Virus record (IMG/VR): IMGVR_UViG_2529292735_000010
Source of the DNA: a virus
Taxonomy: Duplodnaviria > Heunggongvirae > Uroviricota > Caudoviricetes
Direction: 5' to 3' (one strand)
DNA: 10,648 nt
Below are positions 1 to 10,648 of the stretch, piece after piece; position 1 is the stretch's first letter, and each line of letters opens with the position of its first letter. Made by a program: the position numbers and the translations under genes. The notes under the pieces were generated by a model. That model was not told where the DNA came from. It saw nothing but the letters and a program-made list of their open reading frames with translations, and searched no databases.

Positions 1-1
1 C

Positions 2-166
2 ACACGCGCCCTGATTCTGGAGCGTTACCGCGATGCGGACACAACGGACAAGGGCGACCGCCGGGCGGACGCACTGGATATACAGACATCGGATTTGTGG
101 CGCGATGTGAGCTGGGCCATCTCTGACATTCTGTGCCGCCCGCGAATTTTTGCGGAGCTGTGCTGA
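2..166 (+). CDS. 3' end of a head completion/stabilization-like gene (P2 gpL position); 5' end lies outside the window
   Basis: Frame 2 is open from the window edge to TGA at 164-166, which overlaps the ATG of the next gene (TGATG). Translation ends ...DILCRPRIFAELC. The call rests on position immediately upstream of the X-like gene (P2 synteny) and on recollection, not on a search. Confidence 0.4.
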   Translation, partial: TRALILERYRDADTTDKGDRRADALDIQTSDLWRDVSWAISDILCRPRIFAELC

Positions 167-367
167 TGAAAGTGAAGGCACTGGAAGGCGACACCGTGGA
201 TTCGCTCTGTTTCCGGTTACTACGGCACGACGCAGGGCGTCACCGAAAAGGTGCTGGATGCCAACCCCGGATTCTGTCAGCAGGTATTTCTGGACGCCGG
301 GCAGGACGTGGAGATGCCGGAGCCGGAGAAGAAGAAACGAGAAATGATTCAGTTGTGGGGGGAGTAG
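166..367 (+). pseudogene. X: Tail protein X (P2 gpX-like, LysM-type), apparently disrupted by a +1 frameshift near 217-218
   Basis: ATG at 166 gives MKVKALEGDTVDSLCFR. After an extra T at about 217-218 the adjacent frame reads YYGTTQGVTEKVLDANPG...EMIQLWGE and stops at TAG 365-367, just before the holin start. The gpX-like start and end are therefore in different frames. Because the original frame stays open, the ORF track fuses it with the holin as 133..693. Confidence 0.5.
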
Positions 368-369
368 CA

Positions 370-693
370 GTGAGCACCATTCAAACAGGGATCACAGAGC
401 AGGTTATTGCGTGGCTCTTTGACCACCTGCCAACGGTGTATGCAGTAGGCGCGGCAGTCAGCATTTCCGCGCTGATGAGTCTTTATGACGGACGAACACT
501 GGTTCAGACCGTAACGGGATCGCTGGCGTGCGGCGTTCTTGCCATGGCCGTGGCCGGGTCGTTGCGCTTCTTCGGTTTTCCTGAAGATGCCGTGACGTTT
601 ATCGGCGCATCAATCGGTTTTATGGGCGCAGAGAAAGCACGCGACAAGGTTATTGCAGCCTTTAATCGCAGGGTGAAGGAGAAGGACGAATGA
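370..693 (+). CDS. Holin (about 107 aa, three predicted hydrophobic segments and a highly charged C-terminus)
   Basis: GTG at 370 lies 6 nt downstream of GGGGGAG. Hydrophobic stretches VIAWLFDHLPTVYAVGAAVSISALM, VTGSLACGVLAMAVAGSLRFF and VTFIGASIGFMGA are followed by EKARDKVIAAFNRRVKEKDE. The stop overlaps the endolysin start (ATGA), and the gene sits directly upstream of endolysin and spanins. Confidence 0.55.
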   Translation: MSTIQTGITEQVIAWLFDHLPTVYAVGAAVSISALMSLYDGRTLVQTVTGSLACGVLAMAVAGSLRFFGFPEDAVTFIGASIGFMGAEKARDKVIAAFNRRVKEKDE

Positions 694-1083
694 GCAACAC
701 ATTTAAATTCAGCAGCCGGAGCGAAAAGAATTTGCAGGGCGTAAATCCTGATCTGGTGAAAGTGACCCGACGGGCACTGGAAATTTCGGAAGTGGATTTT
801 GGTATCACAGAAGGGTTGCGCAGCCGTTACCGCCAGAAGCAACTTGTGGCCACAGGTAAGAGCCAGACCATGAACAGCCGCCACCTTACGGGACATGCCG
901 TGGATGTTGTGGCTTATATCGGTAGCCAGGTGTCATGGGAATGGCCGCTGTACGAAAAAAATCGCAGCAGCATTCAGACAGGCCAGCCGGGAACTGAATA
1001 TTCCGGTGGAATGGGGCGGCGACTGGAAGACCCTGAAAGACGGACCGCATTTTCAGTTACCACACGGAGCCTATCCGGCATGA
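690..1083 (+). pseudogene. Endolysin, peptidase M15-type (L-alanyl-D-glutamate endopeptidase-like), with an apparent frameshift in an A7 run at 955-961
   Basis: The N-terminal part (frame of 690) reads MSNTFKFSSRSEKNLQGVNPDLV...SRHLTGHAVDVVAYIGSQVSWEWPLYEK. The C-terminal part is in the +1 frame (ORF 895..1083): KKIAAAFRQASRELNIPVEWGGDWKTLKDGPHFQLPHGAYPA. It contains the His/Asp residues expected of M15 zinc peptidases (HxxxxxxD and DGPHF). The junction coincides with GAAAAAAAT, and removing one A would give ...PLYEKIAAAF... in one frame. AGGAG lies upstream of ATG 690. Confidence 0.65.
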
Positions 1084-1637
1084 AGCTCTGGCCCACGCTG
1101 GGCGTCGCTTTCCTTCTGATTGCTGGATGGGGAACATCCATGCGTCTGTCGTGGTCGCTGGGCCGGGAGAACGCCAGAAACGAAGCGCAGGCCAGCACCC
1201 TGAAAAGTACCGTCGACACCCTGAATATCATCAGCGCCGGGGTACAGGATATGCAGCAGGTGCTGGCGCAACTCCGCGTGGAAAATCAGCAACGCAATCA
1301 GGACGGAGAGGTCAGACGTGAACAGCTACGCAACGATATTGCAAAAGATGAATGCGCCCACGCTTTGCCTGACGCTCGTTTTACTGACAGGTTGCGCAGG
1401 CACGCAGAACGCGCCACGGCCAGCGCCGTCAGTCCGGCTTATACCGCAGACGCTGACCATTCCGGTAACGCCGCCCCCTTCCCTGATACTCCCACATGGG
1501 GAAATCTCGGTATATGGGGCGACCGCCTTCTGGATGCACTGGAAACCTGTAACGCGGATAAACGGGCCATTGAATTACTGGAACAGCGCAGGCTGCAACG
1601 ACTGAACAACGAGGATAACAACCATGCTGAAAACTGA
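1080..1637 (+). CDS. Rz-like inner-membrane spanin (i-spanin, LysB-like)
   Basis: ATG at 1080 overlaps the endolysin stop (ATGA). The N-terminal transmembrane segment LWPTLGVAFLLIAGW is followed by a long charged, Q/R-rich periplasmic region (coiled-coil-like). A spanin partner gene is embedded in its +1 frame. Confidence 0.65.
   Translation: MKLWPTLGVAFLLIAGWGTSMRLSWSLGRENARNEAQASTLKSTVDTLNIISAGVQDMQQVLAQLRVENQQRNQDGEVRREQLRNDIAKDECAHALPDARFTDRLRRHAERATASAVSPAYTADADHSGNAAPFPDTPTWGNLGIWGDRLLDALETCNADKRAIELLEQRRLQRLNNEDNNHAEN
1318..1605 (+). CDS. Rz1-like outer-membrane lipoprotein spanin (o-spanin, LysC-like), embedded in the +1 frame of the Rz-like gene
   Basis: ORF 1318..1605 lies entirely within 1080..1637 in another frame. 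It carries a signal peptide with a lipobox (LTLVLLTGCAG) and a proline-rich mature region (PRPAPSVRLIPQTLTIPVTPPPSLILP), typical of Rz1-type o-spanins. The true start may be the internal ATG at 1348. Confidence 0.55.
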   Translation: MNSYATILQKMNAPTLCLTLVLLTGCAGTQNAPRPAPSVRLIPQTLTIPVTPPPSLILPHGEISVYGATAFWMHWKPVTRINGPLNYWNSAGCND

Positions 1638-2091
1638 TTCCCTGCGTGAAGCCATGACCCGTTCATGCCGATGGTGTCAGGCCAACCCGGAAAAATTCAC
1701 CATTTTCGTGGAGAGCGGCAACATTGAAACGACCGGAGAAACCCCATCGTTTGTTTACCGCTATCAGATGGTGATGTTTGTCATGGATTACGCCGGGGAG
1801 CTGGACGACCTCACGCTGCCGCTACTGGCGTGGTTATCCGAAAATCAGCCGCAATTGTTGCTCAATCCGGAGCGTAATCAGGACATCAAATTCTCCGCCG
1901 TTATCAATGACGATGACAGCGCCGATCTCCTGTTTACGCTCCCCCTGCGGGAACGCGTTCGCATCACGCGCAGCAGTCAGGGCACACCGCAGGCAGAACA
2001 CCTGCCGGAGCCAAAACCCCGCCTGCCATCTTCCGAAGGCGACTGGTCGCATGTATTCCAGGATGTGACGTGGGGTGAAAGCGATGGATAA
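1624..2091 (+). CDS. R: Tail completion protein (P2 gpR-like)
   Basis: 155 aa ORF with GAGGA 9 nt upstream of ATG 1624. It overlaps the end of the spanin gene and occupies the gpR position before the S/V/W/J/I block. The length matches gpR as I recall it. Confidence 0.7.
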   Translation: MLKTDSLREAMTRSCRWCQANPEKFTIFVESGNIETTGETPSFVYRYQMVMFVMDYAGELDDLTLPLLAWLSENQPQLLLNPERNQDIKFSAVINDDDSADLLFTLPLRERVRITRSSQGTPQAEHLPEPKPRLPSSEGDWSHVFQDVTWGESDG

Positions 2092-2719
2092 GGCATTCAC
2101 CCGCGTGGATGAAACCTTTGAGGCTATCCGCGACAGCCTGAATCAGCAGGCCATCAATAACATCGCCAGAAAGCTGGCACAGGATTTACGTCGCGCCCAG
2201 CAGGCACGTATCCGGTCACAGAAAGCGCCGGACGGGACTGCATGGACACCACGCAGACGCCGCGTAACCCGGATACAGGAGCGCATTCGCTTTATCTGGA
2301 ATAACGAAGCACGCACGCTGAAAAACTGGCATCACGACACGGGGAAATACGGGCGAACCATTACCGGGTGGGATGAGGATAAAAACAGTATCCGCACGTT
2401 TTACCGGGATGACATCGACCGTTTTCTGGAAATACGCACCCGGCGCATCAACCAGGACAGCACCAGGCGCGTCCCCATGTTCGTAAAACTGCGCACCGCC
2501 CGCTACCTGAAAGCCCGTGCAGATGCTTCCGGTGTGACGGTGGGTTGCAGCGGCGTGGCCGCACGTATTGCCCGCGTTCATCAGTTCGGTGAGCGCGATC
2601 AGGTTGCGCTGGGCATTTTCACCGATTACCCGGTACGTGAGCTGTTGGGTATCAGTCAGGCAGATGAACGCCTGATTTATAACACGGTGCTGGGCCGGAT
2701 TGCGGAGGCTGTACGGTGA
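2084..2719 (+). CDS. S: Tail completion / virion morphogenesis protein (P2 gpS-like), longer than I recall for gpS
   Basis: ATG 2084 overlaps the R stop (ATGGATAA). The C-terminal region has gpS-like motifs (KLRTARYLKA...ARIARVHQFGERD). Its stop overlaps the V start (GTGA). The ORF track begins at GTG 2075, but I prefer the ATG. Confidence 0.6.
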   Translation: MDKAFTRVDETFEAIRDSLNQQAINNIARKLAQDLRRAQQARIRSQKAPDGTAWTPRRRRVTRIQERIRFIWNNEARTLKNWHHDTGKYGRTITGWDEDKNSIRTFYRDDIDRFLEIRTRRINQDSTRRVPMFVKLRTARYLKARADASGVTVGCSGVAARIARVHQFGERDQVALGIFTDYPVRELLGISQADERLIYNTVLGRIAEAVR

Positions 2720-3297
2720 GCGCAGAACTCATGCGACTGCTGAGCAATATCATCCGCACCGGGATCATCTCTGAAGTTGATGAGAAGTCCTGGTGCGTGC
2801 GCGTTCGCAGCGGCGAACTGGAAACAGGCTGGTTACGCTGGAACACCACGCGCGCGGGAGCCTTCAATGTGTGGCTGCCGCCATCACCAGGCGAACAGGT
2901 GGTAATTGCCTGCATTGGCGGCAACCCGGAAACCGCCATGATAATTGGCAGCCTGTGGAGTGATGCCAGTCCGGCCCCCGGCAAAAGCCTGAAAGAAATC
3001 GTGGTCAGCGCGCCGGATGGCGCGGTGTTCCGCTACGACGCGGACGCAGGCGCACTGAGCGCCAGCGGCATGAAAACGGCCACCCTGCAGGCATCCGTCA
3101 GCGTGACACTGGATACGCCCGTCGTGGAATGCACAAACCTTCTGAAAACAGCCGAGATTGACGTCACAAAAGGGGGAAAGATGAGCGGCAATATCACGCA
3201 CAGCGGCGGCGATTTCACCTCAAACGGCATCACAGTGCATACGCATAAGCACGGTGGCGTTAAAGGTGGCAGCGATTCGACAGGAGGCCCGCAGTGA
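2716..3297 (+). CDS. V: Baseplate assembly / spike protein (P2 gpV-like)
   Basis: 193 aa with gpV-like motifs (IRTGIISEVD..., WLPPSPGEQVVIACIGGNPETAMIIGSLWS, C-terminal HTHKHGGVKGGSDSTGGP). GTG start overlaps the S stop. Confidence 0.8.
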   Translation: MSAELMRLLSNIIRTGIISEVDEKSWCVRVRSGELETGWLRWNTTRAGAFNVWLPPSPGEQVVIACIGGNPETAMIIGSLWSDASPAPGKSLKEIVVSAPDGAVFRYDADAGALSASGMKTATLQASVSVTLDTPVVECTNLLKTAEIDVTKGGKMSGNITHSGGDFTSNGITVHTHKHGGVKGGSDSTGGPQ

Positions 3298-3644
3298 CAA
3301 CCCGCTACACAGGAATGAACCCGGACGGAACGGGAAACCTGAACGATATGGAGCACCTGAAACAGTCAGTCAGGGACATCCTGACCACCCCGCTGGCAAG
3401 CCGGGTTATGCGACGGGAATATGGCAGCCTTGTGCCTGATTTGATTGACGAACCCATGAATAACACCACGCGTCTGCAATGCATGAGTGCTGCCGTGATT
3501 GCACTGACACGATGGGAACCCCGCATTGCCCTGGACGCCATCGACGTTGTCTGGAAAGCAGGAGGCCGCGCCGGGGTGACGCTGTCGGGCACTGTCATGC
3601 AGACCATGCTGAATGTTGAATTAACCATCACGCTGAGGGAGTAA
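3294..3644 (+). CDS. W: Baseplate protein (P2 gpW-like, GPW/gp25 family)
   Basis: 116 aa. GTG at 3294 overlaps the V stop (GTGA). Size and position between V and J match gpW. Confidence 0.75.
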   Translation: MTTRYTGMNPDGTGNLNDMEHLKQSVRDILTTPLASRVMRREYGSLVPDLIDEPMNNTTRLQCMSAAVIALTRWEPRIALDAIDVVWKAGGRAGVTLSGTVMQTMLNVELTITLRE

Positions 3645-3646
3645 TC

Positions 3647-4543
3647 ATGCCTGCCGTTGACCTTTCCCAGTTACCGGAACCCGCCATCATCGCGGAGCCT
3701 GACTTTGAGGCAATTCTGGCTGACACAAAGGCCATGATGATTGCGTCCTATCCTGCCGAACAGCGTGAAGCCGTCTCCGCCGCGCTGGAGCTGGAATCGG
3801 AACCCCTGAACGTTATCGCTCAAACCATGTCTTTTCGTGAAATGCTGTTACGCCAGCGGGTCAATGAGGGTGCACGCGCCTGCATGCTAAGCCACAGCGC
3901 CGGGACAGACCTGGACAACCTCGCGGGCAATATGAACACAAAGCGCCTGGTTATCACTCCGGCAACGGATACCACCGACGCAGTGATGGAAAGTGACACC
4001 TCGCTGAGACTACGGGCGCAACGGGCATATGACGGTCTGAGTGTTGCTGGCCCGTCAGGTGCATACGAGTATTTTGCACGCAGCGCCAGCGGTCTGGTAC
4101 GCGATGCGCGGGCCATCAGCCCGTCTCCGGCCAACGTGACGGTTTCCATCCTGTCCACTGAGGGCGACGGCACAGCAACGGAGGCGTTGCTTAATACCGT
4201 TCGCGCCGTTCTGAATGCAGAGGATACCCGCCCGGTGGCCGACCGCCTGACCGTACAGAGTGCCAGAATCGTGACATGGCGGCTGAATGCAAAACTGTAC
4301 TTTTACCCCGGTCCGGAATCCGAACCTATTCTGGCCGCGGCGGAATCGTCATTCAGGAAGTGGCTGGCTGAACAGGGGCTTATCGGTCAGGACGTGGCGT
4401 TGTCCGCCATTGCTGCCGCACTTCATGTACACGGCGTGCAACGCGTGGAGATAATCGAACCCACACAGAATATGGCCATCAGCGACATACAGGCGGCGCG
4501 CTGTGAGTCATTCACCATCAGCGAAGGTGGGCGTAATGAGTAA
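3647..4543 (+). CDS. J: Baseplate wedge protein (P2 gpJ-like)
   Basis: 298 aa ORF starting 3 nt after the W stop. Size and synteny match gpJ (about 300 aa). Confidence 0.8.
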   Translation: MPAVDLSQLPEPAIIAEPDFEAILADTKAMMIASYPAEQREAVSAALELESEPLNVIAQTMSFREMLLRQRVNEGARACMLSHSAGTDLDNLAGNMNTKRLVITPATDTTDAVMESDTSLRLRAQRAYDGLSVAGPSGAYEYFARSASGLVRDARAISPSPANVTVSILSTEGDGTATEALLNTVRAVLNAEDTRPVADRLTVQSARIVTWRLNAKLYFYPGPESEPILAAAESSFRKWLAEQGLIGQDVALSAIAAALHVHGVQRVEIIEPTQNMAISDIQAARCESFTISEGGRNE

Positions 4544-5066
4544 TTCACTGTTACCGCCATCAGCCAGCAGTTTCATGCGTTGTGCCGAAGCTGTCGGAAC
4601 GCGCATTACAGACATCCCGGTAGACCTCAACACACTGTGGTCACCAGATACCTGCCCGGTGCATCTGCTGCCTTATCTCGCCTGGGCATTTTCCGTTGAC
4701 CGCTGGGATCGCAACTGGCCGGAAGAGACAAAGCGACAGGTTATTCGTGATGCATGGCTGATACACCGACACAAAGGGACCATCAGCGCACTGCGCAGGG
4801 CCATTGAACCACTGGGATACCTCATTCGCGTGTCTGAGTGGTGGGAGTTCGGCGGAGAACCGGGAACATTTACCGTTGAAGTCGGCACACTGGACAGTGG
4901 TGTGACGGAGGAAATGTATCTGGAAATGGAGCGGTTGATTGCTGATGCCCGTCCGGTCAGCCGCCACATGACAGGGCTGAATATCATTCAGGAAATTCCG
5001 GGGAATATTTTCGCAGCGGCGGCAACTTATGACGGTGAAGTTATTACCATTTATCCAGGCGATTAA
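4536..5066 (+). CDS. I: Baseplate / tail protein (P2 gpI-like)
   Basis: ATG at 4536 overlaps the J stop (ATGAGTAA), with GAAGGTGGG upstream. It gives a 176 aa product, the length I recall for gpI. The ORF track's earlier GTG at 4503 is less likely. Confidence 0.75.
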
Positions 5067-5068
5067 GT

Positions 5069-6916
5069 ATGAGTACCACAACACGAAAATTTAAAACCGT
5101 TATCACCGATACGGGTGCAAAAAAATTAGCACAGGCAGCCGCGCCAGATGGTAATCCTGTCCGCCTGACACATATGGCCGTGGGTGACGGCGGCGGTACT
5201 TTACCCACGCCAGACAGTAAGCAGACTCGTCTTGTGCATGAGGTGTGGCGACATACTGTTAATCGCGTCTTCCTGGACGCAACACATCAGAACCGCATTA
5301 TTGCGGAGCTGGTTATTCCTCCTGAAACGGGCGGATTCTGGATCCGGGAAATTGGTGTGTTTGATGAGCACGGCGATTTGATCGCGGTGGGCAATACTGC
5401 CGAAAGTTACAAGCCAACCGTTGCCGAAGGGTCCGGACGTGCACAAACATTTCGCACCATTCTGACCGTATCCAGCACTGCCACCGTGGCGCTTACCGTG
5501 GATAACACCATGGTGATGGCCACAGTGGATTACGTGGATGACAAACTGAAAGAGCATGAACAGTCACGACGTCACCCGGACGCCTCACTGACCGCAAGAG
5601 GCTTTGTTCAACTCAGTAGCGACACTAACAGCGTGTCTGAAACACAGGCTGCAACACCAAAGGCGGTAAAGGCAGCATATGACCTTGCTAACGGGAAATA
5701 TACCGCTCAGGACGCCACGACAGCACAAAAAGGGATTGTCCAGCTAAGCAGCGCGACTAACAGCACATCTGAAACGCTTGCCGCGACACCGAAAGCAGTG
5801 AAAGCAGCTAATGACAATGCGAATGGTCGGGTACCTTCTGCCCGTAAGGTGAATGGTAAGGCGCTTTCAGCGGATATTACACTGACGCCGAAAGATATTG
5901 GTACGCTTAACTCAACAACTATGTCATTCAGCGGTGGTGCTGGTTGGTTCAAATTAGCAACGGTAACCATGCCGCAGGCGAGTTCTGTTGTTTCAATTAC
6001 GTTGATTGGTGGCGCGGGATTTAACGTGGGGTCACCTCAACAGGCAGGTATATCTGAACTTGTTTTGCGTGCAGGTAATGGTAATCCGAAGGGGATTACT
6101 GGTGCTTTATGGCAGCGCACATCGACAGGGTTTACAAATTTTGCCTGGGTCAATACATCAGGTGATACTTACGATATTTACGTTGCAATCGGAAATTATG
6201 CGACTGGTGTAAATATTCAATGGGATTATACCAGTAATGCCAGCGTGACGATTCATACGTCACCAGCATATTCTGCTAATAAGCCGGAAGGGTTAACGGA
6301 CGGTACAGTTTATTCACTCTATACGCCATCAGAGCAGTTTTATCCGCCTGGCGCACCAATCCCGTGGCCATCAGATACCGTTCCGTCTGGCTATGCCCTG
6401 ATGCAGGGGCAGACTTTTGACAAATCTGCATACCCGAAACTTGCAGCGGCTTATCCGTCAGGCGTGATCCCTGATATGCGTGGCTGGACGATTAAGGGCA
6501 AACCTGCCAGTGGTCGAGCCGTATTGTCTCAGGAACAGGACGGCATTAAATCGCACACCCACAGCGCCAGCGCATCCAGTACGGATTTGGGGACGAAAAC
6601 CACATCGTCGTTTGATTACGGAACTAAATCCACAAATAACACCGGAGCACATACACACAACTTTGCTTACAACAATACTTCAGCATACGCAGAAACTCCC
6701 GGTACCGGTGGTGGAATGCATGCAACTAACACAAACAAGGCAGCAAGTAATCGCGTATTAAGCGCAGGAGCTCATACTCACACCGTAGCAATAGGTGCGC
6801 ATACACATAAGCTCGCTATTGGTTCGCACACACACACCATTACCATTGCCGCTTATGGCAACGCGGAAAACACCGTAAAAAACATCGCATTTAACTATAT
6901 TGTGAGGCTTGCATAA
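5069..6916 (+). CDS. H: Tail fiber protein (P2 gpH-like N-terminus with a divergent HxH-rich C-terminal receptor-binding region)
   Basis: 615 aa. The N-terminal ~250 aa is gpH-like ([22 protein letters not shown]..., [15 protein letters not shown]...) and includes the characteristic duplicated [20 protein letters not shown] motif. The C-terminal third carries repeated GAHTH/SHTH motifs. Confidence 0.9.
5600..5830 (+). repeat. Two tandem, diverged copies of a ~44-codon coding repeat inside the tail fiber gene
   Basis: Copy 1 (about 5600-5698) encodes [33 protein letters not shown]. Copy 2 (about 5732-5830) encodes [33 protein letters not shown]. The period is about 132 nt. Confidence 0.8.
6550..6840 (+). 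repeat. HxH-motif-rich short coding repeats in the tail fiber C-terminal region
   Basis: The DNA has recurring GCNCAYACNCAYAC-like units encoding SHTHS, GAHTHN, GAHTHT, GAHTHK and SHTHT within about 290 nt. Confidence 0.7.
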
Positions 6917-7515
6917 TGGCATTCAGAATGAGTGAACAACCACGAACCATAAAAATTTATAATCTGCTGGCCGGAACCAATGAATTTATTGGTGAAGGTG
7001 ATGCATACATTCCACCTCATACAGGTCTACCTGCAAATAGTACTGATATTGCTCCGCCAGATATTCCAGCTGGCTTCGTGGCTATTTTCAACAGTGATAA
7101 GACGTCCTGGCATCTCGTTGAAGATCATCGTGGTAAAACGGTTTATGACGTGGCATCAGGGGGCGCGTTATTTATTTCTGAACTTGGTCCATTACCGGAA
7201 AATGTCACCTGGTTATCCCCGGAAGGGGAGTTTCAGAAGTGGAACGGCACAACGTGGGTGAAAGATGCAGAAGCAGAAAAAGTGTTCCGGATACGGGAGG
7301 CGGAAGAAACAAAAAACAGCCTCATGCAGGTAGCCAGTGAGCATATTTCGCCACTTCAAGATGCCGTAGATTTGAATATTGCAACAGAGGAAGAAACATC
7401 GTTACTGGTGGCATGGAAGAAGTATCGAGTGCTGCTGAACCGTGTTGATACATCAAGAGCACCGGATATTGAGTGGCCAGCTCCCCCAGTGGAATCAAGG
7501 AGTAAACAAGCATAA
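6916..7515 (+). CDS. G: Tail fiber assembly chaperone (P2 gpG / Tfa-like)
   Basis: 199 aa. ATG overlaps the H stop (TAATG). The C-terminal region ([32 protein letters not shown]) is typical of Tfa chaperones. It lies immediately downstream of the fiber gene. Confidence 0.85.
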
Positions 7516-7549
7516 AGGCTTTCATTTCAAACCATTGTAGTCCAGTTTT

Positions 7550-8254
7550 TTGTATAGTACCCTGCTCATTTCGGATGACATGTGTGATTTGGAATTTCAG
7601 GGTACCATTATGAATGTTATTTCATCATTAAAACAGCTTAACAGACAGCGAAATATTAAAACAAAAAAGATAAAGACGAAGGCCAGACTGGCATTTCTAA
7701 AAATGCGATACAGAAGGAAAACATCATTACAGCCGGATAGTTATAAAACAGTGTGCATTTTCATGCACATGCAAGCCATTGGTGACGGCATCGTTACCTC
7801 AGGGTTTATTAAACAACTTCAAAAATCCGGTATGGTGGTATATGTGATAGCACCTTCAAGAGTATCATTCCTCTTTACTGATATTGTTGGCGTGGATGCC
7901 TTTATATCTTACGAGAAAAATAAATTTAACGAACTAAAAGCAAAGATAAAAAAACTGAATGTAGATCTTGTTGTTGACTTCTCAAATTTTGATAACACAG
8001 CGATAACCAGATTGCAAACACTACATTTACTTAGACCTAAACACTCTATCTGTTTTAATCATCCTGCCGTAACTATTTTTGATACAAATATAATCGATAA
8101 TCGTTCCATTCACACATCTGAAAGAATGAAAAAAGTTTTATCTTTACTAAAGATAAAAAATAACAATTATGCTGCAGCGCTTAATTTTGACAACAAAATA
8201 TATGAACCAGCAAATATTGTTGCAAATGAATTCAGGAAGAAAAACAAAAATTAG
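7550..8254 (+). CDS. Glycosyltransferase family 9-like (heptosyltransferase-like) protein, N-terminal portion; the reading frame ends at TAG 8252-8254 inside an A-rich tract
   Basis: The segment KTVCIFMHMQAIGDGIVTSGFIKQLQK...VDAFIS...LNVDLVVDF resembles the N-terminal GT9 domain (conserved (A/L)GD motif after the first beta strand, then a hydrophobic D-L-V-(I/V)-D segment). The ORF track start is TTG 7550. ATG 7610, preceded by AGGG, is the more plausible start. Confidence 0.6.
   Translation: MYSTLLISDDMCDLEFQGTIMNVISSLKQLNRQRNIKTKKIKTKARLAFLKMRYRRKTSLQPDSYKTVCIFMHMQAIGDGIVTSGFIKQLQKSGMVVYVIAPSRVSFLFTDIVGVDAFISYEKNKFNELKAKIKKLNVDLVVDFSNFDNTAITRLQTLHLLRPKHSICFNHPAVTIFDTNIIDNRSIHTSERMKKVLSLLKIKNNNYAAALNFDNKIYEPANIVANEFRKKNKN
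7557..7605. promoter_or_regulatory. 8-bp perfect inverted repeat (GTACCCTG ... CAGGGTAC) spanning the putative ribosome-binding site just upstream of ATG 7610
   Basis: GTACCCTG at 7557-7564 and CAGGGTAC at 7598-7605 are separated by a 33 nt spacer. The distal arm overlaps the AGGG candidate Shine-Dalgarno sequence of the island gene. Confidence 0.25.
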
Positions 8255-8367
8255 TTATATTTAACCCTTATGGCTCTCAGAATAGCAGAACCTTATCTGA
8301 TGAACAGATAAACAAAGTACTAGCTTACCTTAATAACCTTAAGGGATATCACACAATAGTTTTTAAT

Positions 8368-8787
8368 ATGGGAAAACAGATTAATCACAATGGATTGGAT
8401 AATGTGTCTCTATCTCCATTTTCTGATGCCGGATGTTCATTTGCATTGGTTCGCCATGCTGATTTTGTTATAACTGTAGATACTGCTATTGTACATTTAG
8501 CCAGTGCATTAAACATTAGACAATACTGTATATATAATAACAGAATGCATGAAGGAAAATTCGAAAATAATATTGTGTGGGGGCCAAACAGCAAATTAGC
8601 GACTCAACTCACCACATCCGAACATCTAAGGTCTGAAGGGGGCGACGATATGCATAAATTCGACATAATGATCTTAATTAATGCTATCAAACAAGATTTG
8701 ACAAACGATATACCGAATTACCACTCGGATTTAGGTTGTAAAAATAGATCCAGAAACCCAGAATTAGAAAGTAGCAATTCTTTATAA
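8368..8787 (+). CDS. Glycosyltransferase family 9-like protein, C-terminal portion (frame open upstream to 8230, overlapping the end of the previous fragment)
   Basis: The frame reads ...KQKLVIFNPYGSQNSRTLSDEQINKVLAYLNNLKGYHTIVFNMGKQ...SPFSDAGCSFALVRHADFVITVDTAIVHLASALNIRQYCIY. This matches the GT9 C-terminal pattern (short NPG(A/S)S-type stretch, then hydrophobic-A-D-hydrophobic-hydrophobic-I-x-x-D-(S/T)-x-x-x-HLA-x-A-L). The frame is open for about 46 codons upstream of the first ATG in AT-rich DNA, which is unlikely by chance. Confidence 0.6.
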   Translation: MGKQINHNGLDNVSLSPFSDAGCSFALVRHADFVITVDTAIVHLASALNIRQYCIYNNRMHEGKFENNIVWGPNSKLATQLTTSEHLRSEGGDDMHKFDIMILINAIKQDLTNDIPNYHSDLGCKNRSRNPELESSNSL

Positions 8788-8840
8788 AGTAGAAACCTCA
8801 ACAGTTTTATCAGGACCTACTATATATTATATAACAACAA

Positions 8841-8874
8841 GCCGCCCATTACCCAATATGAGGGTATTAGCGGC
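8841..8874 (-). terminator. Candidate intrinsic terminator hairpin in the convergent intergenic region (downstream of U on the minus strand)
   Basis: GCCGC(8841-8845)/GCGGC(8870-8874) outer stem and TACCC(8850-8854)/GGGTA(8862-8866) inner stem with a 7 nt loop. On the minus strand the hairpin is followed by TTGTTGTTAT. No clean U-tract follows on the plus strand. Confidence 0.3.
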
Positions 8875-8883
8875 AATGTAAAA

Positions 8884-9378
8884 TCAGAATAGTCCTTTAA
8901 CTGAACTGGCCGCGCTGTTAAGGGATGATGTGACCTTATCTTTGAAGCCGGACAGCATATCACTGAACGATGAGGATTGCAGACGCTCCCGCAAGTCCTC
9001 ATCACAGCGTTCAAGGGTCAGTGAAAATTCTATCTTTTTCGCCTTACCGTAGCGATCAAACTCGGAACGGGTCGTATTCGTTTCAGTCAGTACATACATG
9101 CCGTAAATCTGCCCGACACCATCAATCAAAGGCCAGGGTCGTCCTGTATACGCCTGCGTGGTCAGCAGCGACAGCGACACTTCGCCACCTGTAATTTCAG
9201 GATAAAGCACACCAGAAAGCACGATGCGCTCATCACCTGCACCGATATACTGCCAGCTTGCTGAACGGTTAACGCGTTCATTTTTCACATGCCGCCAGCT
9301 TTTGTTTTGCTGTAACTGCTGATGCGGCAGCGTGCGCAGCTCAAAAACAAACATGCCGTAGATCATCATCATGGCCAT
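8884..9378 (-). CDS. U: Tail protein U (P2 gpU-like)
   Basis: 164 aa minus-strand ORF. The N-terminus (MAMMMIYGMFVFELRTLPHQQLQQNKSWRH) and internal VLSGVLYPEITGG and RPWPLIDGVGQIYGMYV resemble gpU as I recall it. GAGGA lies upstream of the ATG, which is 6 nt downstream of the T stop. Confidence 0.7.
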   Translation of the reverse strand: MAMMMIYGMFVFELRTLPHQQLQQNKSWRHVKNERVNRSASWQYIGAGDERIVLSGVLYPEITGGEVSLSLLTTQAYTGRPWPLIDGVGQIYGMYVLTETNTTRSEFDRYGKAKKIEFSLTLERCDEDLRERLQSSSFSDMLSGFKDKVTSSLNSAASSVKGLF

Positions 9379-9384
9379 GACTCC

Positions 9385-10648
9385 TCAATCTTTATCGTAA
9401 AAACTGCCACGCCCGGCACGAGCGCGCCGTTCCATTTCTGCCCTGACCATTTCACCGACCAGTTTCGCCAGTTCGCGGGGATTCTGCGTAACAACGTTAT
9501 GCAGATGAACATGAATTTCACCGCCAAATCCGGAGGCAACAGGCTCCCGGTTACGGGAAGTTGCAGGAACTGATGCCACTGGCGATCGTATGGCCTCTGC
9601 CACCGGGCGGGAGCTGGCCGCAACAACAGGGACCAGCGCCGGAGGCAGCGGAGCCGGAACCACAGGTGTGATATTAATTGCGGGGGCAGGCTTACTGACC
9701 TGCGCAACCTTCCGCTCCTGCCACTCCCCACGAACAGCCAGTGCGCGGGGCAGGTTCTTAAAGACAATATCGCCGGGGCCAATGCGTTTTTTCGTCTCAT
9801 CAACCAGCTTACCTGTGTTATCAGCAATTTTGCTGAGTCTGCGTAGCGTGCCGGTATTGCTGTCTGTGAGCGGTTTGTTGTCTTTGGGTTTATCACCTCC
9901 GGTGCCATTGCCATTTTCCACAGGCTTCGGCGGATTGATTTTCGCCAGGTCCCCCTGAAGCAAGGCAACCTTGTCCTGAAGAATGGCCGCACGCTGTGCG
10001 TCTTCGATTTTCTTGCGCGCCTTTTCCGCTTCATCCGGAAGGACGCCAAGTTTTTCAAGTATCCACGCCAGCGTATCCAGTAGCATTTTTGCAGGTGTCA
10101 GAACAAGCTGTAACGCACCGCCAAGAACGTTACCGAATATCTCGCCAGCACTGGTACATTTATCCAGCGTTTCCTTGCTGGACTCCATCGGTGACAGCAG
10201 CGATTTAAACCAGTTAAACACCTGGCTGATCCCGCTTCCGATTGCGTCAAAAACAGGACCAAACCGTTCAAAGGTTTCGCGCAACGGGGTCAGCCTTTCC
10301 ATAATCCCGCTGAACACCCCGGCAAAAAATAGCCCTGATGGGATCCCAGTATTTCCAGATAAGTACGGCAGCTCCGGCAAGCGCAGCCACGATAAGACCA
10401 ACCGGACTGAACAGCGCCCCGATAGCGCCTCCCAGTAAAGAAACGGAACCCGTCACCATTCCCCATAGTGCTGGCAGGACCCTGACAGCATTCATTGATC
10501 CGGTCAGGAGAGAAAAACCAAGACGCAGTTTTGCCAGCGGACCAGCAAGCACACCAATAGCCAGCGACAACGAGCCAACCGTTGCAGTCATTGCCAGCAA
10601 CGCACCGCCTGCTATCAGTAGCTGGCGCGTCAGTGCCGGATGGGCCTG
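9385..10648 (-). pseudogene. T: Tail tape measure protein (P2 gpT-like), C-terminal ~420 codons; 5' end outside the window; apparent frameshift in a homopolymer at 10324-10329
   Basis: Two minus-strand ORFs in different frames (10268..10600, open to the window edge, and 9385..10401) overlap at a T6 run (A6 on the + strand, 10324-10329). The upstream part is a glycine/alanine-rich hydrophobic tape-measure-type segment (GAIGALFSPVGLIVAALAGAAVLIWKYWDPIRAIF). The downstream part continues (F)AGVFSGIMERL... with coiled-coil-like and proline-rich regions. Removing one T joins them as ...DPIRAIFAGVFSGIMERL.... Confidence 0.75.

Follow-up and report, generated by a model that had tools for sequence, protein, structure and literature searches.

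A one-base shortfall in an A-tract, probably a draft-sequence artefact, splits a GT9-type cargo gene in a P88/P2-like prophage contig of Escherichia coli DEC14C

By exact-protein look-up, the window, the whole stretch of DNA analysed here (10,648 bp), corresponds to contig AIHM01000045.1 in full, from the draft assembly GCA_000250455.2 of E. coli DEC14C. The AIHM accession lies inside the range given for the DECA collection, and the DEC14C product is named ECDEC14C_2020 at source. The prophage belongs to the P2 family and is of the P88/Xuanwuvirus type, and the window holds a segment of its late genes, which run in the order gpL (partial), X, holin, M15 endolysin, Rz-like DUF2570/LysC genes, R, S, V, W, J and I, followed by the tail fibre gene H, the tail-fibre assembly gene G and gpU (Table 1); beyond gpU the start of the tape-measure gene is found on the minus strand. 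A protein identical to J is present in 3301 index blocks. Among approximately 15 billion proteins, the tail fibre H of the window (615 aa) is unique to this contig and the 305-aa fragment of the tape-measure protein occurs nowhere else. The tail fibre is 44 aa (132 nt) shorter than that of the closest relative, and overlapping BLAST segments are seen at 5604-5815; these segments suggest that an internal repeat of H has been collapsed or deleted, especially in this interval.

The segment between G and gpU is a cassette of low G+C content, as against 51-61% in the upstream late genes (window 1-5400). Its position is constant wherever the genomic context was fetched, and the slot appears as a cargo hot spot among relatives. 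Phage P88 carries an invertible fibre segment and a DNA invertase there instead of the GT9-type gene, relatives L057 and L058 carry a hexapeptide-repeat protein, and relative L055 has an ORF without Pfam match in the slot itself and a Macro-domain gene just upstream of G. The cassette thus combines the three marks of P2-family moron cassettes: atypical composition, a fixed slot among late genes and unrelated cargo in relatives. Scans of the cassette with promoter and terminator consensus sequences returned sites no more numerous than in shuffled sequence. The textbook cargo (moron) slot following a tail-fibre assembly gene is that of Z/fun in P2. The present cassette resembles the P2-family slot in being a low-G+C insert between gene G and the next tail gene, and is unlike it in its cargo, a GT9-type enzyme.

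Table 1. Features and private one-base indels of the window, with window coordinates
Feature	Position	Strand	Remarks
Private indel, +1 (extra T, GGTAC -> GGTTAC)	217	+	frameshifts tail protein X (gpX)
Private indel, +1 (A6 -> A7)	955..961	+	frameshifts M15 endolysin, fused with next ORF (690-1637)
Private indel, -1 (C6 -> C5)	1473..1478	+	breaks Rz-like DUF2570/LysC region, ORF extended to 1637
Private indel, -A	3643		intergenic
Tail fibre H	5069-6916		after I
Tail-fibre assembly gene G	6916-7515		
Low-G+C cargo cassette, ~30-35%	7516..8883	+	composition profile; between G and gpU
N-terminal fragment ORF, 214 aa, ...EFRKKNKN*	7610..8254	+	translation
C-terminal frame	8230..8787	+	opens after TGA 8227-8229, ends TAA 8785-8787
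A5-C-A5 tract	8240..8250	+	A5 8240-8244, C 8245, A5 8246-8250
Private indel, A6 -> A5	8246	+	breaks GT9 gene
gpU	8884-9378	-	
Private indel, +1	10331	-	splits tape-measure gene into 9385-10401 and 10268-10600

The cargo is read in two frames. The N-terminal frame begins at ATG 7610, with a TTG upstream at 7550, reads ...ANIVANEFRKKNKN and stops at TAG 8252-8254; ATG 7610 is also the RefSeq start of the intact 392-aa gene. The fragment encoded comprises a basic N-terminal helix and the N-terminal Rossmann-type domain of a GT9-like protein. After TGA 8227-8229 the C-terminal frame reads IQEEKQKLVIFNPYGS... and encodes the nucleotide-sugar-binding domain (KLVIFNPYGS ... TVDTAIVHLASALN); its first in-frame ATG, at 8368, lies beyond conserved core elements. 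The two frames share only AAAAACAAAAA at 8240-8250, also given as GAAGAAAAACAAAAATTA. A reading of the window from its sequence only had reported these frame limits and an overlap confined to the A5-C-A5 tract, and translation confirms both. It had further taken the two ORFs for halves of one GT9-like gene, which is borne out by the match to PF01075, by the alignment to strain 165 and by Foldseek. In strain 165 the locus is one ORF of 1179 nt, which differs from the window by three substitutions and one gap, the sole length difference being an extra A in the second run; the same single gap separates the window from the relatives L001 (strain 165), L002 and L003. A chance juxtaposition of two genes was rejected on the strength of this ORF and its one extra A. 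The second run, 8246-8250, is one A short of an in-frame A5-C-A6, and the frame shifts at codon 214, where Lys becomes Asn. The proposal that a single-base indel in either A-run would restore one ORF is correct in that one base separates the halves, but not any indel serves: the repair requires a +1 insertion or a -2 deletion.

The cassette was matched in 49 of 5426 complete E. coli genomes. In 48 of the 49 at least 80% of the cassette is covered at 95.5-99.7% identity (the 49th matches 59%), and 47 of these 48 span 1369 nt, compared to 1368 in the window. The RefSeq annotation of the orthologues is a single 392-aa 'glycosyltransferase family 9 protein'. Comparison with orthologous loci, which had been recommended as a check, gives the native state of the tract: in each of the 49 gene-carrying RefSeq complete E. 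coli genomes a 102-nt probe over it matches a stretch of exactly 102 nt, and by span A5-C-A6 stands in frame in 49 of 49. The tract was read out at more than 60 loci in all. A5-C-A6 was also found in 4/4 metagenome contigs and, within the allele class of the window, in 7/7 IMG/VR contigs and 10/10 sampled loci. The idea that the two ORFs are normally separate genes is refuted by these single-ORF orthologues and by the in-frame proteins of two allele classes, which occur in 1944 (class of the window) and 1978 index blocks. The truncated product of the window's class occurs in 2 blocks; by exact look-up the product ending in ...KKNKN is limited to two assemblies, DEC14C and GCA_015476785.1. Megablast against the phage collection detected no copy of the cassette, and neither tract pattern had a match in the collection of species-representative genomes.

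The repaired 392-aa protein matches Pfam PF01075 over residues 211-312 with 26 bits (gathering cut-off 22, E 7e-6) and belongs to PHROG 36326, which is annotated as 'unknown function'. An AF2 model built on a 34-sequence alignment reached a pLDDT of 90.1 and a pTM of 0.86; the model relied on this alignment of homologues, the single-sequence AF2 run giving a pLDDT of 33. In the model, residues 47-161 form the strands of the first domain. By AF2 and Foldseek the protein has a GT-B fold of two Rossmann domains, closest to solved GT9 enzymes. The top Foldseek matches in the PDB are almost all GT9 proteins, namely 3tov, WaaC (2h1h, 6dfe, 2gt1) and WaaF (1psw), with E values of 5e-14 to 3e-11 and target-normalised TM scores of about 0.7. 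Chains of plant NDH-PSI supercomplexes take ranks 5 and 11, and other GT-B families begin at E ~1e-6. A single-sequence search of the PDB with the repaired protein gave no matches. The NCBIfam models for RfaQ (24.6 bits, cut-off 467) and heptosyltransferase I, WaaC (22.9 bits, cut-off 185.3), score far under their cut-offs, and the protein is therefore not an equivalog of the heptosyltransferases WaaC, WaaF or WaaQ. The homologues show 39-57% identity; the named ones are from Providencia and Orbus, and most of the others are nameless.

With the GT9 heptosyltransferases of the LPS core (WaaC, WaaF, WaaQ, and 3tov of Veillonella) the protein shares the PF01075 assignment and the best fold matches, and its C-domain motif VDTAIVHLA aligns to the corresponding region of WaaC at the sequence level. 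It differs from them in being only 12-17% identical, in its extra basic N-terminal helix of about 45 aa, and in being encoded on a prophage with its nearest homologues in Providencia and Orbus. The helix is long and very basic (residues 1-45, window 7610-7750; H2-33 in the model), is absent from WaaC and WaaF, and lies outside the PHROG 36326 profile, which aligns from M52 onward only; the extension possibly serves membrane association. From the analogy with GT9 heptosyltransferases, which rests on family membership, the intact enzyme is inferred to modify the LPS core. A full-text literature search for GT9 or heptosyltransferase cargo of prophages returned nothing on the gene by title or abstract.

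The tract codes for residues 210-214, which form a loop between the helix 199-210 and the strand 214-219. This strand is the first of the C-terminal (donor-binding) domain, and the break falls directly before it in the AF2 model. Among homologues the linker at this place varies in sequence and length; a relative with 89% identity reads RGGGKK. Read literally, the split allele is a null, since it supplies the N-terminal domain only (214 aa), without a usable start for the C-terminal frame, and breaks the protein at the domain boundary.

The sequence-only reading had left three explanations for the missing base: artefact, inactivating mutation or switching. The first is favoured by the other private indels of the contig, the second is possible in view of GCA_015476785.1, and the third is unsupported. 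According to the favoured explanation, which is held here at a probability of roughly three in four, the missing A is a homopolymer-length error, that is, a sequencing or assembly artefact of the 2012 draft, and the real DEC14C gene is intact. One A of an A6 would have been lost, the run being read as A5, within a single 392-aa GT9-type cargo gene of a P88/P2-like prophage.

The evidence for an artefact comes from the remainder of the contig. The references for calling private indels were phage P88 and eleven prophage relatives, and each was compared over its overlap with the window. Six private single-base indels were found, one in the GT9 tract and five elsewhere (Table 1); none of these five occurs in P88 or in the other relatives aligned at the respective site, and the relatives encode an intact 66-aa X. 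A 4979-nt alignment of the left half with 10 relatives gives 4 singleton indels for the window and 0 for each relative, whereas the 28 singleton substitutions of the window are inside the range of the relatives (5-58). The singleton substitutions of the window comprise 19 synonymous, 9 nonsynonymous and 0 nonsense changes, and the 4 that fall in the frameshifted endolysin are all silent when read in its native frame. These substitution classes, together with the identity of the J protein to the protein of 3301 blocks, suggest a prophage without sign of long decay or relaxed selection, apparently under purifying selection to the present. A decaying prophage was rejected as the source of the indels, the excess being in indels only and both the singleton counts and the synonymous and nonsynonymous classes giving no indication of relaxed selection. 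As judged from the alignments, such a burst of indels alone is characteristic of sequencing or consensus error rather than of decay. Only 12 runs of at least 6 nt exist in the window, and three of the six indels fall where the relatives have a 6-nt run. Since the missing A is accompanied by five further private one-base indels, four of them gene-breaking, in a sequence whose substitutions still look selected, the indels are inferred to be of technical origin, in sequencing or assembly, and not biological. The unique tail fibre protein and tape-measure fragment fit an imperfect consensus as well.

Some observations weigh against an artefact. Neither the indel at 217 nor that at 10331 lengthens a run of three or more bases, which makes them less typical of homopolymer miscalls, and a cryptic prophage could tolerate real frameshifts. 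A sister assembly of the DEC14C prophage that shares or lacks the indels was sought and none was found, the closest backbones being only about 97% identical. GCA_015476785.1 shows that the exact A5-C-A5 mutation does arise in nature. It is an independent, chromosome-scale assembly in which the allele lies on a different prophage haplotype and backbone, and the A5-C-A5 is its only indel in approximately 14.8 kb aligned to strain 165. In GCA_015476785.1 (L004) and strain 165 (L001) the GT9 cassette resides in a shortened prophage remnant in which the capsid is fused to tail protein I, indicating that the cargo gene was kept after the phage was crippled; the L004 remnant carries further deletions.

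The same observations are the best argument for a real inactivating mutation, in which slippage removed one A in the DEC14C lineage and left an ordinary pseudogene of dispensable cargo, of no regulatory meaning. The identical -1 allele in an otherwise indel-free assembly on a different haplotype speaks for it, as do low-frequency ±1 frameshift products at other runs of the gene, which show that nulls arise and persist. The population data suggest that an identical -1 mutation can be real but is rare, and the base rate of about 0.1% (2 against 1944 in-frame blocks) counts against it in DEC14C. So does the company of the lesion, five private indels without relaxed selection; five or six recent true indels in 10.6 kb without a nonsense change are unlikely. 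On balance a true mutation in DEC14C is improbable beside an artefact, yet it is the one alternative of some weight.

Slipped-strand phase variation would make the A-tract an evolved contingency switch that happened to be OFF when DEC14C was sampled; as an explanation for the window it is far more remote. It draws on the facts that ±1 in the tract toggles the frame, that the product is a probable surface-glycan enzyme by analogy, and that a sister A8 allele varies repeatedly (see below). Genes for surface-glycan enzymes are typically phase-variable in Haemophilus, Neisseria, Campylobacter and Helicobacter. The locus resembles the simple-sequence-repeat (SSR) contingency glycosyltransferases, such as the poly-G LOS and capsule loci of Campylobacter, lgtA/lgtC of Neisseria and futA/futB of Helicobacter, in having an intragenic mononucleotide run and in that a ±1 change toggles a putative surface-glycan enzyme between full-length and truncated forms. 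Unlike these loci, the run of the window is A5/A6, interrupted, and free of excess polymorphism; only the A8 sister allele looks hypermutable. Measured against what is expected of contingency loci, an intragenic repeat with a frame-shifting ±1 is present (A5-C-A6 in frame, A5-C-A5 out), a mononucleotide run of about 8 or more is lacking in the window allele (5 and 5, or 6 if intact), and an excess of two-way length polymorphism is absent from the class of the window and present in the A8 class. Runs of A5 and A6 are shorter than the length at which high-frequency homopolymer switching occurs. The tract is not conserved in homologues (e.g. RGGGKK), and neither + variants at the tract of the window's class nor the compensated in-frame A6-C-A5 occur in the collection. 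A literature search on phase variation returned only unrelated papers on Campylobacter and Helicobacter.

Nor does the tract of the window stand out within its own gene. The notion that the tract is unusual for this gene was discarded, as the intact gene, with about 30% G+C, contains 14 homopolymers of at least 5 nt, among them one A7, longer than either run of the tract, and four A6. As a control, the predicted ±1 products were looked up for five other runs of the GT9 gene. The -1 product was found on 4 contigs for the A7 at nt 339 and on 5 contigs for the A6 at nt 520, and the +1 product on 0 and 1 contig, respectively. Neither product was found for the A6 at nt 546 or the T5 at nt 752, and the G5 at nt 971 gave 0 contigs for -1 and 1 contig for +1. 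With 2 out-of-frame against 1944 in-frame blocks, the tract of the window falls within the 0-5 contigs seen per tested product and is not above the other A6/A7 runs. The comparison indicates a tract that is not special, and slippage switching is not supported for A5-C-A6; the earlier suggestion of on/off switching has some merit only for the A8-C-A6 allele, which the window lacks.

Programmed recoding, in which -1 ribosomal frameshifting or transcriptional slippage would join the frames, is the least credible reading and was rejected for the missing slippery heptamer and the lack of conservation: -1 is the correct direction and A-rich sequence is slippery in general, but the zero-frame codons at the junction (AAG AAA AAC AAA AAT TAG) contain no X XXY YYZ heptamer (neither candidate, G AAA AAC or C AAA AAT, conforms), the two-frame layout is not conserved, orthologues being nearly all in frame, and A5 is too short for slippage of RNA polymerase.

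The sister allele differs from the window by A for G at 8239, which fuses AA+G+A5 into an A8 (A8-C-A6, in frame, amino acids unchanged), with linked changes that include N235K and R380S. A8-C-A6 was found in 9/9 sampled loci with the in-frame protein. The sister-allele loci (L010-L031, L033-L041, L043 and L047-L049) have tracts homologous to window 8234-8251. The allele came to light through three other predicted truncated products, two of them on far more contigs than that of the window; A4-C-A6 and A6-C-A6 were rejected as their source, since the DNA shows the A8 allele class. Out-of-frame products of this class occur in 107 blocks against 1978 in frame, or about 5%. The -1 product accounts for 74 blocks, the sampled loci having A7-C-A6, or A8-C-A6 with AGG -> AGA; the +1 product accounts for 31 blocks, with A9-C-A6 or AG-A10-C-A6 in the sampled loci; and A8-C-A7 accounts for 2 blocks. 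IMG/VR contigs add A8-C-A5 and A7-C-A5. A7, A8, A9 and A8-C-A7 co-occur on identical flanking haplotypes of 2580 nt, with at least 7 extra tract states over 29 loci. The out-of-frame share of about 5%, compared to 0.1% in the class of the window, gives a Fisher p of ~1e-28, a value to be read with the index blocks not being independent lineages.

These data show recurrent slippage of the A8 allele in both directions, at a frequency that scales with run length. The A8 tract is a candidate for an evolved switch, or else a mere hot spot under weak selection. That it is a true homopolymer on/off switch for an LPS-modifying enzyme of lysogenic conversion in E. coli is doubtful, and reverted or compensated in-frame variants of the A8 class were not found in the collection. 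To our knowledge, the glycosyltransferases of E. coli have no established record of SSR-type phase variation. If the A8 switch were true, the interrupted A5-C-A6 of the window's class would be its stabilised or ancestral version. The N235K change makes another A7 run at window 8311-8317 (GATAAAAAAAGT, against GATAAACAAAGT in the window), so that the sister allele is richer in long A-runs. The partial proteins P0009, P0011, P0017, P0021 and P0024, all from short-read assemblies and homologous to ~8234-8260, end or begin exactly at the tract (ends ...ANEFR; starts KNKKLVIF, KKNKKLVIF, KKLVIF and NKKLVIF), which indicates that contigs break there; the cause could be a mixture of run lengths in the cultures or low read quality there.

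The GT9 split itself is an ordinary finding. Its practical consequence is that the DEC14C draft contig is unfit for pseudogene calls, since single-base indels absent from all relatives break at least five of its genes; a real frameshift would mean only the loss of one accessory prophage enzyme from DEC14C. The comparison as a whole delineates a widespread and uncharacterised GT9-type gene that P88/P2-like prophages carry as cargo and that about 1% of complete E. coli genomes contain. The LPS core is commonly regarded as the adsorption site of P2-type phages, and the putative GT9 enzyme could for this reason plausibly alter that phage receptor. The A8 allele, length-variable in natural isolates, would be a modest and testable candidate for switchable lysogenic conversion.
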